Assembly (NCBI GenBank): GCA_043742365.1
Contig: JAYTYM010000065.1
Coordinates: forward strand, 11,909-35,908
Direction of reading: 5' to 3'
Origin: a bacterium
GTDB lineage: Bacteria; Patescibacteriota; Minisyncoccia; Phycocordibacterales; UBA6899
DNA length: 24,000 nt
Shown piece after piece: positions 10,278-24,000 of the stretch (its first letter is position 1; every line of letters begins with the position of its first letter). The notes beneath the pieces are model-generated. The model worked only from the letters and a program-made list of their open reading frames with translations. It was not told where the DNA came from and did not search any database. Made by a program: the position numbers and the translations under genes.

Positions 10278-11105
10278 TTATTTCGCACCTTTCTTCTTTT
10301 TGCCACTGCCGGGCTGGTCCTTTTGGCCGCCGTTGCCTTTGGAGGGTTGGGCGGCGAGGCGCTGCGCGCGGTTGTTTTCACGCTTGGCTTCACGCTTGGC
10401 ACGGTCGACGGAAGAAGTCGGACTTTTCGCTTCGCCTGCTCGCGAGGAGTCGTCGATGGCACCGCCACGCACGAGGATCTCGGCGCCAGACTTCTGGTGG
10501 AAGTAGACGGCATCACGGCCGTTCTTCGCATTGCAGAAGTACTCACAACCCATCTCTTCGAGGAGGATCACCTTCGCTTCGAGGTTGATGTCCTCGCGGC
10601 GCAGATGACCCAGGGCAGTCGACACGACGTCTTGAATGTAGCCGACGCGCAGGCGTTCCTTGTGGGCAACCTCCTCTTCCGTCTGAGCGCGCTCTTCGTT
10701 GCGGCGCTCTTCTTCGCGCAGGCGGTCTTCCTCGAGGCCGCGAGTGAGCACGTCCGCGGGGATCGCGATTGCGATCGGACGCGGGGTGCTGCCCTTGCGG
10801 ACCTTGAAGGAGTTCACCAGCTTCAGGCCTTGCTCATCTGGGAGTTGCGTGATGCAACCGACGAGCGAGACGTTCTGGGTCAGCCTCTCATCCGCTTGAA
10901 GCTTTAGCGTGGCTGCCTTTTCGGCTGCACGCTTGGCTTTGTTGGCGGCCTTGCGCTCCGCATGTGCTGCCAGGTTCGCAGCGGCCTGTTCCTCGGAAAC
11001 GGTCACGAGGCTGAGGTTCGCCTGGGCGAAGGGGGCGTGGCGGAAATTCGCCAGTTCTTGTTGGTTCGAAGAAGAGTTCTGACCAAATTGCGGGGCGGTG
11101 ACCAT
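10278..11105 (-). CDS. GC-rich orphan protein with a Lys/Arg/Glu-rich coiled-coil centre and a basic tail; no recognisable family
   Basis: Long ORF with abrupt GC elevation: I counted 39 G+C in the 60 nt at 10321-10380, against 27/60 at 9721-9780. I prefer the ATG at 11105, which is preceded by GGAG about 8 nt upstream; GTG 11162 is the alternative. Shadow ORFs lie on the opposite strand, as expected for high GC. Confidence 0.6.
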   Translation of the reverse strand: MVTAPQFGQNSSSNQQELANFRHAPFAQANLSLVTVSEEQAAANLAAHAERKAANKAKRAAEKAATLKLQADERLTQNVSLVGCITQLPDEQGLKLVNSFKVRKGSTPRPIAIAIPADVLTRGLEEDRLREEERRNEERAQTEEEVAHKERLRVGYIQDVVSTALGHLRREDINLEAKVILLEEMGCEYFCNAKNGRDAVYFHQKSGAEILVRGGAIDDSSRAGEAKSPTSSVDRAKREAKRENNRAQRLAAQPSKGNGGQKDQPGSGKKKKGAK

Positions 11106-11162
11106 GATTAGTGCTCCAAAAAGTCCAAAACCGTGGACGAATCGGGGTAGGTCGTATTTCAC

Positions 11163-19036: not shown

Positions 19037-19748
19037 TAAGCAAATCGCGATAATTTATGAAGATGATGATGTGTTTGCAGTCAATAAACCTGCAGGACTT
19101 GTTGTTCATGCCGATGGTAGAACTATCGAGTCTACGCTTTCGGATTGGGTGCTAGAAAAATATCCGAAACTTAAAGATGTCGGCGGTATGCATACACTCG
19201 ACTCAGGGCGTTATGCCCCACGTGCGGGCATTTTGCATAGGCTCGATCGCGAAACATCCGGAGTGATACTTATCGCAAGGAACGACGAGGCATTTTATTA
19301 TATTCAACGACAATTTCTGGATCACTCGATAAAGAAAATCTACAACGCCTTTGTGAGCGGAACACCTGAGCCTGAAGCAGGAGTGATCGATCTTGCAATC
19401 GGTAGAAGTAGGACTGATTACAGACAGTGGACGACGGGGGTGCTCGCGCGCGGAACCTTACGCAAGGCGCTCACGCACTACAAGGTCGAACATGCTGCTA
19501 AGGGATATGCATATCTTACCCTTTCTCCCGAAACTGGCCGCACGCACCAGTTGCGGGTGCACATGAAAGCGCTCGGTTACCCAATACTCTGTGACAGTCG
19601 TTACGAAAGTCCATCTGGCCTTGGTTTTACGCGTCTCGCCCTGCATGCAAGCGAGCTCACTTTTGAAAATACGAGGCACCATAAGCTCACTATTGAAGCT
19701 CCCTTACCGACTGATTTCCTGCTTGCCTTAGGTGAAATATCAAAATAA
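18999..19748 (+). CDS. RluA-family pseudouridine synthase (no S4 domain)
   Basis: Catalytic motif HRLDRETSGVILIARN is present, along with GRTHQLRVH. It overlaps the uppS 3' end by 38 nt. Confidence 0.85.
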   Translation: MNMDNDSVASALNKQIAIIYEDDDVFAVNKPAGLVVHADGRTIESTLSDWVLEKYPKLKDVGGMHTLDSGRYAPRAGILHRLDRETSGVILIARNDEAFYYIQRQFLDHSIKKIYNAFVSGTPEPEAGVIDLAIGRSRTDYRQWTTGVLARGTLRKALTHYKVEHAAKGYAYLTLSPETGRTHQLRVHMKALGYPILCDSRYESPSGLGFTRLALHASELTFENTRHHKLTIEAPLPTDFLLALGEISK

Positions 19749-19848
19749 TCCTTAATTTTGAGGGATAAAAGGAAATATTCGCATTTTCTTGCAAAATGAA
19801 AGGGGGTATGTTAGATTTCGGTCTACATTCAATACAAGTGAAAACCCT

Positions 19849-20301
19849 ATGAATACGACACTACACAGCATGATCAAACTTTCTCCAGTCAATATGGAGG
19901 CACGCCAGAAACTTGAGTTTCGTGCGGGTGACACGGTGCGCGTATGGGTGAAGGTCCTCGAAGATGCAGAAAAGAAGAAGTATCGCCTTCAGGCATTCGA
20001 AGGGCTCGTACTTGCTCGCAAGCATGGCTCAGAACCAGGCGCTACTATCACTGTACGCAAGGTTGCAAGTGGTGTCGGGGTTGAGCGTGTATTTCCTTTG
20101 TATTCCCCAATGATCGACAAGATAGAGCTGGTAAAGCGTTCGATGGTTCGCCGCGCCAAACTCTACTATGTCCGCGAGAAAGCAGTCCGCGATGTCCGCC
20201 GCAAGATGAAACAGACGCGCATGGGTGGAGGTTCCACAAAAGATTTCGAAGAAACTCACGTTCCAGTCGTTTCCGAAGATGAGACAAAAACCGAAGCATA
20301 A
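19849..20301 (+). CDS. rplS: 50S ribosomal protein L19 with an acidic C-terminal extension
   Basis: [81 protein letters not shown]. The start is uncertain (19849, 19870 or 19789). Confidence 0.88.
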
Positions 20302-20394
20302 ACCAAACGATCCGCTACCAAGGCGGGTCTTTTGTTTAACACGCATTACCACTTGATACTTATACAAATATTGTCTATAGTAGGTGACACACAA

Positions 20395-20478
20395 GCCCAG
20401 GTGGCGAAATTGGTAGACGCACTACCTTGAGGTGGTAGCGCCCGCAAGGGCATGGAGGTTCAAGTCCTCTCTTGGGCA
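20395..20478 (+). tRNA. tRNA-Leu (anticodon GAG), long variable arm
   Basis: Acceptor GCCCAGG/CTTGGGC, anticodon arm CTACC-TTGAGGT-GGTAG, variable arm CGCCCGCAAGGGCAT, T arm GGAGGTTCAAGTCCTCT. Confidence 0.92.
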
Positions 20479-20525
20479 CAATATGACCGCACAAATGCAA
20501 AGCATTTGTGCGGTTTCATATTGTA
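20479..20525. terminator. Long palindromic hairpin after tRNA-Leu(GAG)
   Basis: caatatgaccgcacaaatgc-aaa-gcatttgtgcggtttcatattg, with a small bulge. The palindrome continues outward into the tRNA 3' end and its inverted copy at 20526-20548. Confidence 0.65.
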
Positions 20526-21121
20526 GCCCAAGAGAGGACTTGAAAGACGGAGGCGGTCTACGATTTCGCTTTGCGAAATTGTCGCCGAGTCGGGGTCGCA
20601 AGTACTTATGAGCGAAGCGAATTAGTAACTTGTGACCAAGTCCTCTACAGGCACTTTCGCGAGAGGACTTGAAAACCTTGGTGCGACCAAATTTTTCTTT
20701 GATGTCCTCATCTTAGAAAAATTGAAGTACTCTTGTGGTGATGTTTTGGCTTTGCAAAACCACCAAGGTGTACCGTCCCCGTAGGGGAAAAGTCCTAACT
20801 TGAAAGACGGAGCCTATGTTTCGCCAGCGACCAAAAACTCTTGAGCGTAGCGATTAGAGATTTGAAGTACTCCTGTGGTGCATGCGAAACCGCGAGCGAC
20901 ATTATTTGCTTATGAGCTAGCGAATTTAGCAAATAAGACGTGCCTGTGGCGCGGGGTCGCAGAAATTTCTGAGCGACCAAAAGTATGCGACCAGAGTGAG
21001 ATAAAATTGGAAGCACTCTTTGTGGTGTGGCGACAAAAAAATATCACTACAAGAGTACTTCCAAATTTCAGTACTCGAGGACACGATGAAGTTTTAGGTC
21101 GCTGTGACAAAGTCCTCCACA
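20526..21121. repeat. Series of three tRNA-Leu(GAG)-linked modules (families A and B), each ending in a copy of the T-arm 3' half
   Basis: AAGTCCT(C/A) occurs at 20462 (the tRNA), 20638, 20790 and 21110. The inverted tRNA end tagcccaagagaggacttgaa is at 20526. The 15-mer acttgaaagacggag is at 20538 and 20798. gcgaccaaa..ttgaagtactcYtgtggtg recurs with a period of about 145 bp. Confidence 0.6.
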
Positions 21122-21145
21122 AAAAAAGACCCGCATCGCGGGTCT
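21120..21145 (-). terminator. Intrinsic terminator of the gam-like gene
   Basis: AGACCCGC-atc-GCGGGTCT. On the minus strand it is followed by TTTTTTT. Confidence 0.7.
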
Positions 21146-21149
21146 ATAA

Positions 21150-21671
21150 CTATTCACTGACTACAGTTACAAATTCAACTGCCGTCTTTGGTTCCACAAA
21201 GAACTTTTCTGTTTGTGTATAGCGAACTCCTTGAATCTGCGGCTTTTCTTTTAATAGCGCTTCTTTGTCGATGGATTCTATGTTGCGGATATATTTCGTC
21301 AGCTCAAGACTCTTGAGAATGTCTAGGATCTTTTCATCGCCGCCACGTCCGGCAGTCACCTTAGGCGGAGTCAGTCTCCACCCGAATATCCCCGAAGAAA
21401 GAGTGACTGTTTTCTTGTCGGCAGCAAGTAATTCTTGCCGATGCTTCACTGCGAATAGTTTGATATTCACTACATGATTTGCAGTTTGTGCCTGAAGTGG
21501 TTTTATCGCCGCATCTGCTTCTTGGCGCAATGTCGCAACTTTTTCTGCAAGTTCGCGTTCGATAGTTTCGGTTGAGCGTACCAGAATACCCACAATGTGT
21601 AGGACGCCATTTGCCTCATCGATGTTTTGTATAGGATGAATAGGGGTCGATTTTTTTGCTCGGCTCATCAT
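21150..21671 (-). CDS. gam: Phage Mu Gam-like host-nuclease inhibitor (DNA-end-binding) protein
   Basis: 173 aa. The segment GIFGWRLTPPKVTAGRGGDEKILDILKSLELTKYIRNIESIDKEALLKEKP parallels Mu Gam GDVSWRVRPPSVSIRGMDAVMETLERLGLQRFIRTKQEINKEAILLEP (recalled from memory). The N-terminal half is coiled-coil. Confidence 0.8.
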   Translation of the reverse strand: MMSRAKKSTPIHPIQNIDEANGVLHIVGILVRSTETIERELAEKVATLRQEADAAIKPLQAQTANHVVNIKLFAVKHRQELLAADKKTVTLSSGIFGWRLTPPKVTAGRGGDEKILDILKSLELTKYIRNIESIDKEALLKEKPQIQGVRYTQTEKFFVEPKTAVEFVTVVSE

Positions 21672-21811
21672 ATGCTCCTCGTCGGAAATTCAAAAGAATA
21701 CTCCATAATGTATATTTGCATACACTAATGATTCTGCCGTGAATTCTCCTTGCACTTTTCACGTTGAAGAGTAGTTTATGTGCAGGCTCTTTTTTATATT
21801 AAGGATGAACA

Positions 21812-22834
21812 ATGGAAACGAACATCGTCTCTCTGCCGCACATCACGCAATACCACGCTTCGATCCAGAATCCACACTTTGACGTTGATCTCGTTACAAC
21901 GAACATTTTTGAAAAGCACGGGCAAGTGATAATGATCGATCCAAGGCGGGTGCAGCCGCTGTCTGATCAGCCTCGCCAAAGCTCGAACCCCGGATTCAGT
22001 CTCGAGTCGATTGCCGCACTTTCGATGTGTATTAGTGCTGAAGGCCAGATCGAACCGGCACTCATTGCTCCGCCGACCAAGTCGGGGTGGGACGCAGCTC
22101 TCGTTGATGGCGAACGCAGGCATCGCGCGTGCCTGCATGGCAACATGATGCTTATGGCGCGCGTTGACTTGAGCATCACGAACCCAGAAGAGCACTTCGT
22201 GAAATCAGTGATGGCCAATTTCCACAGGGAAGGCCATACGTGCATCGAGATCATGTATGCGGTTAAGCGTATGCAGACAACTCGCACGAGAGAGCAGATC
22301 GCTACCGTCTTTGGTCGCTCTGTGCAATGGGTGGATCTACATATCTCGCTCATGCGACTCGACGAAGCGCTACACCCATTTCTTGTCGATCAAGAAGTAG
22401 AGCAAGAGGGTGATGGCACAGGCGAGCAAGTCGAAATCAAAAAGCGAGGTCGCAAGCAAACGGGTAAGCTGACATTTCAGCTCGCTCTTGTTATTTCTGG
22501 TTTGCCCAAAAGCGATCAGATGAATGTCGCCAAGGAGGTGCTTGGTAAACGAATGCCCTACGATGTAGCCCGCAGATACGTATTGCGCTATATCGACGAC
22601 AACGGCATTGTTACGAAATATTCGAAGCGTTCGCCGAGCGAGTCATTTCAGTCGCTTGAAAAAGCGGCTGGTACCGCTGAAAATAAATTTGGTGTTTTCA
22701 TCGACAAGAATCCGCGCACACTTCGTGAACTTTTTGATACTCAGTCCCCGATGGACCGTAGATTGCTTGCAGAAAAGCTCCGACTTCTAAGTGTAGATAT
22801 TTCGTCACTTGCGGATATCCTGTCACCTCAGTGA
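21812..22834 (+). CDS. ParB/Sulfiredoxin N-terminal domain protein with HTH (ParB/KorB-like); no ParA partner
   Basis: A ParB box is present (ALVDGERRHRAC). An HTH-like segment follows (TREQIATVFGRSVQWVDLHISLMRL). Length is 340 aa. It is transcribed divergently from gam. Confidence 0.75.
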   Translation: METNIVSLPHITQYHASIQNPHFDVDLVTTNIFEKHGQVIMIDPRRVQPLSDQPRQSSNPGFSLESIAALSMCISAEGQIEPALIAPPTKSGWDAALVDGERRHRACLHGNMMLMARVDLSITNPEEHFVKSVMANFHREGHTCIEIMYAVKRMQTTRTREQIATVFGRSVQWVDLHISLMRLDEALHPFLVDQEVEQEGDGTGEQVEIKKRGRKQTGKLTFQLALVISGLPKSDQMNVAKEVLGKRMPYDVARRYVLRYIDDNGIVTKYSKRSPSESFQSLEKAAGTAENKFGVFIDKNPRTLRELFDTQSPMDRRLLAEKLRLLSVDISSLADILSPQ

Positions 22835-22844
22835 AAAAATAAAA

Positions 22845-22873
22845 AACACCACCCACTTTGTTGGGTGTTTTTT
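22845..22873 (+). terminator. Terminator after the ParB-like gene
   Basis: An A-run, then AACACC..GGTGTT / ACCCA..TGGGT hairpin, then TTTTTT. Confidence 0.55.
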
Positions 22874-22909
22874 GTAAGTCGTAAAAACAATCTCTGCTTG
22901 CGAAGTGAG

Positions 22910-22991
22910 TGGGCGTGGGGAGACTCGAACTCCCAACCCTTACGGGATACGCTTCTGAGACGTACGCGTATACCAATTCCGCCACACGCCC
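22910..22991 (-). tRNA. tRNA-Leu (anticodon CAG), long variable arm
   Basis: Reverse complement: acceptor GGGCGTG/CACGCCC, anticodon arm TACGT-CTCAGAA-GCGTA, variable arm TCCCGTAAGGGTT, T arm GGGAGTTCGAGTCTCCC. Confidence 0.92.
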
Positions 22992-22993
22992 AC

Positions 22994-23297
22994 TCACCAC
23001 ACAAACTTTCTATACTCCGCTCCTGAGACGTACGCGACTATATTCTTTTGCAATTCCCCCACACGCCCACTCACCACACAAACTTTCTATACTCCGCTCC
23101 TGAGACGTACGCGACCATATTTATTTGCAGTTCCTCCTCACACTCACTGCACAAGTTCTCTATGATTACGTTTATTAGACGTAAGCGACTATATTCTTTT
23201 GCAATTTCACCACAAACCCAGATGTTCCAATAACATTTATGCTTCGATTCTAAGGCGTACGAGACCTCATTCTTTGGCAGTTCCCCCTTCTAGTCAC
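22994..23297 (-). repeat. Tandem array (4 units, 74-77 bp) of degenerating copies of the tRNA-Leu(CAG) upstream spacer plus 5' two-thirds
   Basis: Units start at 23023, 23100, 23174 and 23250, and each resembles 22955-22993 of the real gene. The 29-nt spacer tcaccacacaaactttctatactccgctc is identical at 22994 and 23071. Similarity decays with distance from the gene. Confidence 0.75.
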
Positions 23298-23712
23298 TTA
23301 CAGTACAAGCTCATCGCGACCCACTTTTTTTGAAATACATGAATTCATTTTATTTATTATTCGTATAAAACGACTTAACACAAGCATATTTAAGTAATTC
23401 ATAAGAAAATTAAATTTATCTAAGCAACATAATTTGCCCAACTGTCCTTTACCTTTTTTCCTACACTCTGTCCTTTATGAAACATCTGGCTGTAATAAAG
23501 AGTGTAGCAAAATGAGTAATGTTTATCTAGCTTTTATCCAAAACAACAAAATTGATTTGATGCAATACCTTTGACAAGACGTCAATCTTTACGATGAGCC
23601 TGCTGGTGCTAGGGTGGATATAGTCAAATTGTTGTTTGACAATCGAACCGAAGAGGGGAATCGCACAGGCGAAACCTTTGTCGGCCTTTTTCACTTTGAA
23701 AAGGACTGTATC

Positions 23713-24000
23713 ATGGACGTTCTCGAAAAACATGCCACGCGGCATACACGCACGCAAGACCTACAGATGACCCTCCTCGAATATCTCGAGGAATGCAAGC
23801 GTAACTCGCTTGCCTATGCATCCGCTTCCGAGCGCATGCTCAAGGCCATCGGTGAACCGAAAACGGTTGATACACGTGATGATCCTCGCCTTTCGCGTTT
23901 GTTCGCGAATAAGGTGATTAAGGTCTATCCCGCTTTTGCCGAGTTCTACGGCATGGAAGACGCCATCGAACAGGTGGTGAGCTACTTCCGTCACTCCGCT
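23713..24000 (+). CDS. prkA: PrkA/YeaG-family serine protein kinase, N-terminal 96 codons (runs off the window)
   Basis: Manual translation gives MDVLEKHATRHTRTQDLQMTLLEYLEECKRNSLAYASASERMLKAIGEPKTVDTRDDPRLSRLFANKVIKVYPAFAEFYGMEDAIEQVVSYFRHSA. This closely parallels E. coli YeaG (..AYANAAERLLMAIGEP..VDT..PRLSRLFSNRVIARYPAFEEFYGMEDAIEQIVSY.., recalled from memory). It is absent from the ORF track because no stop codon lies in the window. Confidence 0.85.
   Translation, partial: MDVLEKHATRHTRTQDLQMTLLEYLEECKRNSLAYASASERMLKAIGEPKTVDTRDDPRLSRLFANKVIKVYPAFAEFYGMEDAIEQVVSYFRHSA

Follow-up and report, generated by a model that had tools for sequence, protein, structure and literature searches.

The stretch of DNA analyzed here (24,000 nucleotides, hereafter the window; positions 11909-35908 of contig C65 in genome G000) reaches the end of a 35.9-kb contig from an ultra-small Patescibacteria bacterium, whose assembly comprises 1.04 Mb in 118 contigs, is 82% complete, and has a GC content of 46.8%. 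Two divergent genes, one encoding a member of the Gam family of phage Mu and the other a ParB-like protein, lie between convergent genes for tRNA-Leu(GAG) and tRNA-Leu(CAG), with the prkA operon beyond (Table 1). An annotation made from the letters of this DNA (the original prediction) had described them as a two-gene cassette with no integrase, transposase, or ParA. The coordinates and features that it listed are all correct: each gene has its own terminator hairpin, the control region between the genes measures exactly 140 bp and contains the inverted repeat TGTAT-ATTTGC-ATACA, and none of the open reading frames (ORFs) tested in the window encodes an integrase, a transposase, or ParA. Comparison with related loci suggests, on balance, that these are two separately inherited accessory chromosomal genes in a genus-wide variable slot between the two tRNA-Leu genes upstream of prkA, and neither an obligate cassette nor the stump of a prophage or plasmid.

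The assignment of the first gene to the Gam family stands: its 173-residue ORF matches PF07352 over essentially the full profile (positions 2-149 of 149; E = 3.4e-25; 89.2 bits against a curated cut-off of 28.3), and the protein also matches phrog_491 (E = 3e-28) and, by sequence, the solved putative Gam 2p2u (E = 1e-7 over residues 7-161). It is 29-32% identical to the Gam proteins of phages Mu and RcapMu. Translation more likely starts at the second ATG (21668), which lies 6 nucleotides after GAGGAG. An AlphaFold model, built from an alignment of four sequences, had a predicted local distance difference test (pLDDT) value of 39 and was unusable, and the PADLOC models of defense systems gave no system match (a 14.7-bit partial hit only). 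The gene is under strong purifying selection, with a ratio of nonsynonymous to synonymous substitution (dN/dS) of 0.08-0.11. Of 301 genomes of the order, 15 (approximately 5%) have a PF07352 match above the cut-off; at the other loci of the order that were examined, the gene is solitary among housekeeping neighbors (RpoD, DsbA, RmuC, a pseudouridine synthase, a methyltransferase, and a P-type ATPase). Among the Gam genes of the order, those of the genus group into a single clade (support 85/90). A divergent pair of Gam and a TrmB-like regulator of approximately 250-260 residues is seen in two families of the order (L039 of genome G005, L054 of G001, and L049 of G178; G and L numbers denote genomes and loci), the regulators of G178 and G005 being 37% identical over 254 residues (E = 2e-50). 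A literature search for Gam in Patescibacteria found no paper.

The identity of the ParB-like protein is less apparent from single-sequence searches, in which it scored just under the curated cut-offs (23.7 against 26.3 bits for PF02195; 52.7 against 58.45 for TIGR00180), and became clear with a profile of six homologs and with structural comparison. The profile matched KorB (8qa8, E = 1.5e-12), ParB (4umk and 6t1f, approximately 1e-9), and Noc among PDB entries; Foldseek matched the N-terminal two-thirds of a model to Noc, ParB, and KorB at probability 1.0, the model being mediocre overall (pLDDT 59) and adequate for the N-terminal fold match. On these grounds the protein is clearly predicted to have the ParB-CTPase (cytidine triphosphatase) fold together with a helix-turn-helix (HTH). 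Its N-terminal CTPase-type domain carries Box I (QPR), Box II (GERRHRA, residues 100-106), and Box III (ANFHRE, aligned to the ENLQR box); P54, R55, E101, R102, R103, and N136 do not vary among 18 family members with identities as low as 27%. Alignment to the HTH of KorB and ParB places the HTH at residues ~145-199; the HTH_ParB profile is weak in this protein and reaches 42.6 bits in family member P0015. The C-terminal ~140 residues are specific to the family, conserved within it, and without a known match. A canonical ParB is encoded on contig C52 of the same genome, so the gene in the window is a second, orphan paralog. Like Gam, it is under strong purifying selection (dN/dS = 0.05-0.10).

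The close subfamily of this protein is rare: it comprises six clusters at 90% identity among 5.8 billion proteins and occurs in two of 61 related genomes, and a scan of genome contigs for relatives returned G010 as the sole match. The wider family has 93 representative clusters at E <= 1e-30, most of them with full-length matches, and was found in five of 400 other sampled genomes of the phylum. Four distant members on long contigs lie in conserved chromosomal neighborhoods (MurJ-LepA-X-DivIC-like, and methyltransferase-X-RRM protein, X being the family member), with no Gam, ParA, or phage genes near them. Some distant members (28-34% identity; L072:6001-7734, L074:6001-7749, and L075:3345-4997) have an N-terminal extension of ~220 residues with no Pfam match and occur in these neighborhoods. 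The hallmarks of a ParABS partition system are lacking: there is no ParA beside the gene in any locus examined and no ParA-type AAA_31 protein in the 82%-complete G000, residues 1-40 contain no ParA-interaction motif of the LG-R/K-GL type, and no parS-like palindrome common to the ParB-bearing loci was found. PADLOC defense-system models gave no hit to the ParB-like protein.

The slot that holds the two genes is conserved in position throughout the genus and species-specific in content. Of 21 other species of the genus, 14 carry prkA; its upstream region was retrieved from 12 genomes, in two of which that region is interrupted by contig ends. Ten of the 12 have the order tRNA-Leu(GAG), gap, tRNA-Leu(CAG), prkA (with convergent tRNA genes in nine), and the order of tRNA-Leu(GAG), tRNA-Leu(CAG), and prkA is identical in five metagenomic loci with homologs. 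The gap measures 244-2429 bp. It contains tRNA-tail modules (based on copies of the tRNA 3' end) and spacer only in G018, G006, G009, and G014; CreD in G013; and unknown ORFs in G019 and G020. G005 and G001 have a Gam homolog in the same place and orientation as in G000, divergent there from a gene for a TrmB-like winged-helix regulator, with a zf-UBP gene added in G005. The ParB-like gene stands alone in G010 (94% identical to that of the window), L065/L066 (89%), and L006 (51%), and is accompanied by a hydrolase-like ORF in L004 (57%). Both genes are present in G000, L010/L011, and L067/L068. No integrase, transposase, ParA, or further phage or plasmid gene was found in any related slot locus, and BLASTN and TBLASTN searches of the slots of ParB-less relatives revealed no significant remnant of either gene; the similarity seen by eye between the G018 spacer and the ribosome-binding site and start of the ParB-like gene was not significant. 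A literature search for tRNA hotspots in Patescibacteria found no paper.

Alignment of five close loci shows the Gam block (approximately 21122-21735) as a clean indel; the terminator, the gene, and ~65 bp upstream of it, with the palindrome TGTATATTTGCATACA, all fall within the block. On its left the block adjoins the last direct copy of the tRNA tail (...GTGACAAAGTCCT; ...AAAGTCCT), on its right the otherwise unchanged region upstream of the ParB-like gene (CCTTGCACTTTTCAC...AAGGATGAACAATG), and no target duplication is visible in the alignment. The palindrome is kept in the Gam-bearing loci L010 and L067 and is absent from the ParB-only loci L003 and L065; because it lies inside the indel, it belongs to the Gam block and not to the promoter of the ParB-like gene. 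It is absent from the intergenic regions between Gam and TrmB-like genes, and the more general motif TGTAT-N6-ATACA was rejected as a regulon motif, being present in three genome copies against 1.4 expected and thus not enriched. In L010 (4916-5873) and L011, two independent records, an intact Gam gene adjoins a ParB-like gene that has an internal deletion of ~29 codons and a frameshift and is a decaying copy. Together with the ParB-only loci, this indicates that each gene exists without a working partner. The proposal of a two-gene cassette is accordingly not upheld, since each gene occurs without the other and the same slot is variously filled in relatives. The suggestion that the two form a minimal domesticated module survives in part: they have the look of long-resident, functional accessory genes of the host, but they are not a coupled pair.

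A functional module is nevertheless conceivable, in which the divergently encoded DNA-binding protein (ParB-like, or TrmB-like in G001, G005, and G178) would repress or time Gam through the 140-bp region, for example at TGTATATTTGCATACA, and the two would jointly handle linear or broken DNA. Every Gam gene at the slot is divergently paired with a gene for an HTH protein, and the pair with TrmB recurs in another family; the 16-bp palindrome, of a size suited to parS or an operator, is conserved in three Gam alleles despite a synonymous divergence (dS) of ~1; and Gam and the ParB-like gene diverged together in the allele swap between L010 and L067 described below. We nonetheless consider such a module unlikely. 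The ParB-like gene has remained under purifying selection without Gam, and with its promoter unchanged, in at least four lineages; an intact Gam persists beside a frameshifted ParB-like gene; the palindrome is part of the Gam block, and ParB-only loci lack it; in the order, most Gam genes are without an HTH neighbor; and the distant ParB-like genes never adjoin Gam. Regulation of Gam by the ParB-like protein via the palindrome is possible and is not favored, because the ParB-like gene persists without Gam and without the palindrome.

Judged by sequence identity, the divergence of the ParB-like gene follows that of the flanking housekeeping genes: it is 86-94% identical where RluA is 82% identical, and 51-57% where RluA is 63-65%. 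The Gam genes of the genus, although united in one clade, diverge faster than the flanks (31-38% identity where RluA is 64-65% identical). In a poorly resolved tree of three markers the ParB-bearing lineages are not monophyletic. Long residence, with losses on repeated occasions, is the simplest interpretation. The proposal that the genes are the remnant of a mobile element is not supported, given the intactness of both, the purifying selection acting on them, and the way in which the ParB-like gene tracks its flanks.

Exchange at the level of strains is apparent from comparison of L010, a metagenome-assembled genome (assembly GCA_043783745.1), with L067. Across the amine-oxidase-like gene, uppS, rluA, rplS, tRNA-Leu(GAG), and the terminator hairpin, the two differ at six of 3489 bases (99.8% identity); they diverge abruptly from the inverted tail copy onward, 47 bp past the tRNA, and beyond this breakpoint Gam and the 5' part of the ParB-like gene are 80.7% identical, with dS ~1. 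The contigs of L067 and L068 stop inside the ParB-like gene, and the left breakpoint alone is visible. With nearly identical flanks and slot content that is only 80.7% identical, one of the two strains has had the content of its slot replaced by a diverged allele. Replacement by homologous recombination is plausible, since G000 encodes ComEC and natural competence has been demonstrated in Saccharibacteria, another Patescibacteria lineage (PMC10633639). Genes in the slot would turn over chiefly through homologous recombination, for which the conserved tRNA genes and housekeeping flanks serve as anchors, supplemented by local deletion.

Behind tRNA-Leu(GAG) lies a zone of repeated modules, the number of units of which varies among relatives (20480-21121 in the window; L010:3912-4230; L034 of G018). 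It includes an exact, 19-nucleotide inverted copy of the tRNA-Leu(GAG) tail at 20526-20544. In a shuffle-controlled scan, tail copies were significant only at 20525-21122 (three with a score of at least 20, against 0.125 in shuffles); to the right of Gam and on either side of the ParB-like gene, the best scores were at noise level, as were two copies proposed by eye at ~21735 and ~22885. The search for att-like repeats bounding the pair, suggested with the original prediction, therefore yielded no significant tail copy at the right side of Gam or at the borders of the ParB-like gene, and the suggested link between the genes and the adjacent repeats is not sustained, since tail modules also occur in the relatives examined that lack both genes (for example, G018, G006, G009, and G014).

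These modules bear on a second alternative, that the genes are cargo of an integrase-less array resembling an integron or tycheposon, inserted or exchanged site-specifically at the copies of the tRNA-Leu(GAG) 3' end by a recombinase whose gene lies elsewhere or in a different cell. Three observations would fit such a mechanism: the Gam block, a clean indel, begins precisely where a direct tail copy ends; the breakpoint of the allele swap between strains falls at the inverted copy 47 bp past the tRNA; and the content of the slot is highly diverse across species. Opposed to it are the lack of a significant tail copy to the right of Gam or flanking the ParB-like gene, the lack of a visible target duplication at the Gam indel, and a divergence of the ParB-like gene that fits vertical descent. 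No serine recombinase was found in G000 (82% complete), and its single tyrosine recombinase gene lies on another contig and is likely, by count, to be of the Xer type. The hallmarks of tRNA-associated islands are only partly present: presence/absence polymorphism among close relatives at a conserved site was observed, and an integrase with direct repeats of the tRNA 3' end at both borders was not. We regard cassette cargo of this kind as improbable.

A broader version of this idea, which is doubtful though it merits somewhat more credence, holds that the slot is an integrase-less, exchangeable cassette site of Patescibacteria organized by the tRNA-tail hairpin modules. Under this reading, both Gam and the orphan ParB-like clamp would circulate as cargo that handles DNA, and Gam with a divergent HTH regulator would form a recurrent mini-module that shields incoming or broken DNA ends in naturally competent, ultra-small bacteria devoid of Ku. 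It draws on the coincidence of the swap breakpoint with the inverted tail copy and of the start of the Gam block with the end of the direct copy.

The third alternative, a decayed remnant of a Mu-like transposable phage, or of the partition or regulation region of a plasmid, integrated at tRNA-Leu, is largely refuted and would be very surprising. Gam is a classic early gene of Mu-like phages and retains recognizable identity to the Mu and RcapMu proteins; the ParB-like protein has its closest solved relative in KorB, which is encoded by a plasmid; and a location adjacent to a tRNA gene would fit. However, no Mu A or B transposase, repressor/Ner, or other phage gene was found in the window or the related loci, no further phage or plasmid gene occurs at the site in relatives, and none of the loci examined contains a decayed full prophage. 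A genome-wide search for the Mu DDE_2 domain returned no match, a result that is uninformative, since the control search was equally silent. Both genes are intact, with dN/dS ~0.1, and Mu transposes randomly, with no targeting of tRNA genes. The description of the two proteins as hallmarks of phages and plasmids holds weakly for the ParB-like protein: in Patescibacteria its full-length relatives are encoded on chromosomes, the search of viral contigs yielded no relative, and its matches to phage and plasmid records are limited to the N-terminal and HTH part. The composition of the pair is not anomalous either; the GC count reported for 22021-22080 (32/60) is correct, yet neither gene is an outlier, with 50.8% GC in the ParB-like gene (90th percentile of 1-kb windows of the genome) and 44.6% in Gam (23rd percentile).

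Table 1. Features of the slot between the two tRNA-Leu genes (window coordinates)
Feature	Position	Strand	Remarks
tRNA-Leu(GAG)	20395-20479	plus	ARAGORN; Rfam tRNA, 50.5 bits; left anchor of the slot, position conserved in the genus
tRNA-tail module zone, non-coding, ~640 bp	20480-21121		Terminator hairpin, followed by copies of the tRNA 3' end in inverted and direct orientation
Intrinsic terminator of Gam	21127-21145	minus	8-bp stem with 6 GC pairs, T-run; conserved in L010 and L067
Mu-Gam-family gene, 172-173 amino acids	21150-21671	minus	
Palindrome TGTAT-ATTTGC-ATACA (TGTATATTTGCATACA)	21709-21724		Within the DNA upstream of Gam
Upstream/leader region of ParB-like gene (CCTTGCACTTTTCACGTTGAAGAGTAG...AAGGATGAACA)	21736-21811	plus	Conserved in all close loci, with or without Gam
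Orphan ParB/KorB-like gene, 340 amino acids	21812-22834	plus	
Hairpin	22850-22867		Terminator score on both strands; common to the ParB-like gene and the convergent tRNA-Leu(CAG); kept in L003 and L065
tRNA-Leu(CAG)	22909-22991	minus	ARAGORN and Rfam; right anchor of the slot, followed by the prkA operon

An Rfam scan of 19700-24000 gave the two tRNAs and nothing else above threshold.

Gam of phage Mu is a Ku-like DNA-end binder and an inhibitor of RecBCD. By analogy, the protein encoded in the window most likely works as a Ku-like dimer, capping double-strand DNA ends and blocking a helicase-nuclease of the AddAB/RecB type; here it would do so for the benefit of the host. G000 encodes an AddB/RecB-like PDDEXK protein of 1078 residues (C103), and neither Ku nor an ATP-dependent ligase was found in it; a role in end protection rather than in end joining is therefore suggested. 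The ParB-like protein would most likely be a partner-less, HTH-directed DNA clamp or regulator gated by a nucleotide (probably CTP), in the manner of KorB or Noc (a paradigm set out in PMC11790492 and PMC12704722), and not a partition protein.

Several points weigh against the reading of two separately inherited accessory genes. In all slot loci examined, Gam is divergent from a gene for a DNA-binding protein, ParB-like or TrmB-like, an arrangement that could reflect regulatory coupling. The start of the Gam block exactly after the direct tail copy and the breakpoint at the inverted copy would also fit site-specific cassette exchange instead of plain homologous recombination, and the latter leaves such a mechanism possible for the allele swap as well. 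Presence and absence were mapped on a poorly resolved marker tree, and loss is not rigorously separable from gain. The biochemical roles proposed for both proteins are drawn from homology, palindrome searches identified no binding site for the ParB-like protein, and, at 82% completeness, the genome-wide absences of ParA, Ku, and recombinases are provisional.

Set beside known systems, both genes are ordinary new representatives of established families that occupy a plastic slot between tRNA genes, and no new kind of system is required. Gam resembles the proteins of Mu and Mu-like phages in family, in length (~170 residues), and in its full-length match to PF07352, but it is not part of a transposable phage; it is a solitary chromosomal gene beside a tRNA gene, under purifying selection and within a genus-specific clade. 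KorB of plasmid RK2 (8qa8 and 8qa9) is a CTP-dependent sliding clamp of the ParB family and a long-range repressor (PMC11790492). The ParB-like protein shares with it the motifs QPR..NPGFS.ESIA, G(E/A)RRxR, and (E/A)N..R, the HTH, and the predicted fold. In contrast to KorB, it has no clamp-locking partner like KorA or TrbA, no IncC/ParA, and no identified OB-like site; its C-terminal 140 residues are unrelated, and its gene is chromosomal in Patescibacteria. Orphan ParB proteins, of which Noc is one, have been surveyed (PMC12704722), and the survey links many orphans to mobile elements. The gene in the window is like them in lying outside a parAB operon, in being additional to a canonical ParB, and in having kept the ParB-CTPase motifs; unlike the orphans surveyed, its family is rare, occurs in housekeeping contexts, and has its own C-terminal domain and, in some members, the N-terminal extension.

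The slot itself resembles tRNA-linked islands, tandem island arrays, tycheposons, and integron cassette arrays in that small, variable, strain-specific cargo lies beside a tRNA gene, with copies of the 3' end nearby and with presence/absence polymorphism. It differs in having no integrase, in blocks that are not bounded by tail copies, and in its position between two convergent tRNA genes; moreover, the ParB-like gene co-diverges with the flanks, and the exchange seen between strains resembles allelic replacement. The locus shows that a gene familiar from phage textbooks (Mu gam) and a regulator of the plasmid type (KorB/ParB-like) can persist, under selection and over the long term, on the chromosomes of ultra-small bacteria without the backbone of a mobile element. 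The inter-tRNA gap, with its empty sites, alternative fillings, and strain-level allele swap, is a hotspot of gene turnover in Patescibacteria and bears on how their reduced genomes gain and lose accessory functions. Both proteins are reasonable targets for biochemistry: one as a predicted Ku-like end binder in a genome that shows neither Ku nor a LigD-type ligase, the other as a representative of a new family of orphan ParB-CTPases.

Several further features were observed around the slot. Directly upstream of tRNA-Leu(GAG), two ParB-only loci have an ORF of 222-223 residues with a LAGLIDADG_3 domain (L003:544-1212 of G010, and L004:2691-3362); the tRNA-Leu(GAG) gene of G010 is a sequence variant of that in G000, which suggests a homing-endonuclease-plus-tRNA cassette at the same locus. 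An IS200/IS605-type Y1 transposase gene lies between rluA and rplS (L006:2225-2941 and L007:37-753) in the lineage with the 51% identical ParB-like protein. Upstream of tRNA-Leu(CAG) is a tandem array with a period of ~77 bp (3.2 copies over 22974-23214 by TRF), in which four decaying units, each composed of the 5' part of tRNA-Leu(CAG) and a leader, extend to 23298; G010 has a shorter version.

Two palindromes lie upstream of prkA, TTGACA-N3-TGTCAA with one mismatch at 23571-23585 and GTCAAATTGTTGTTTGAC at 23623-23640, and are conserved in L010, L065, L069, L006, L033, and L036-L038. The first was rejected as a parS-like site, as it recurs upstream of prkA in ParB-less genomes also; its presence with or without the ParB-like gene indicates that it is probably an operator or promoter element of prkA. 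The prkA-DUF444(yeaH)-spoVR operon itself is present in this Patescibacteria genome of ~1 Mb (window 23713-24000 and contig C13 of G000) and in L004, L006, and L010, and is rare in the rest of the order. Elsewhere in the window, a GC-rich stretch at 10278-11162 (61% GC at 10501-11000) contains overlapping long ORFs on both strands with no Pfam match.

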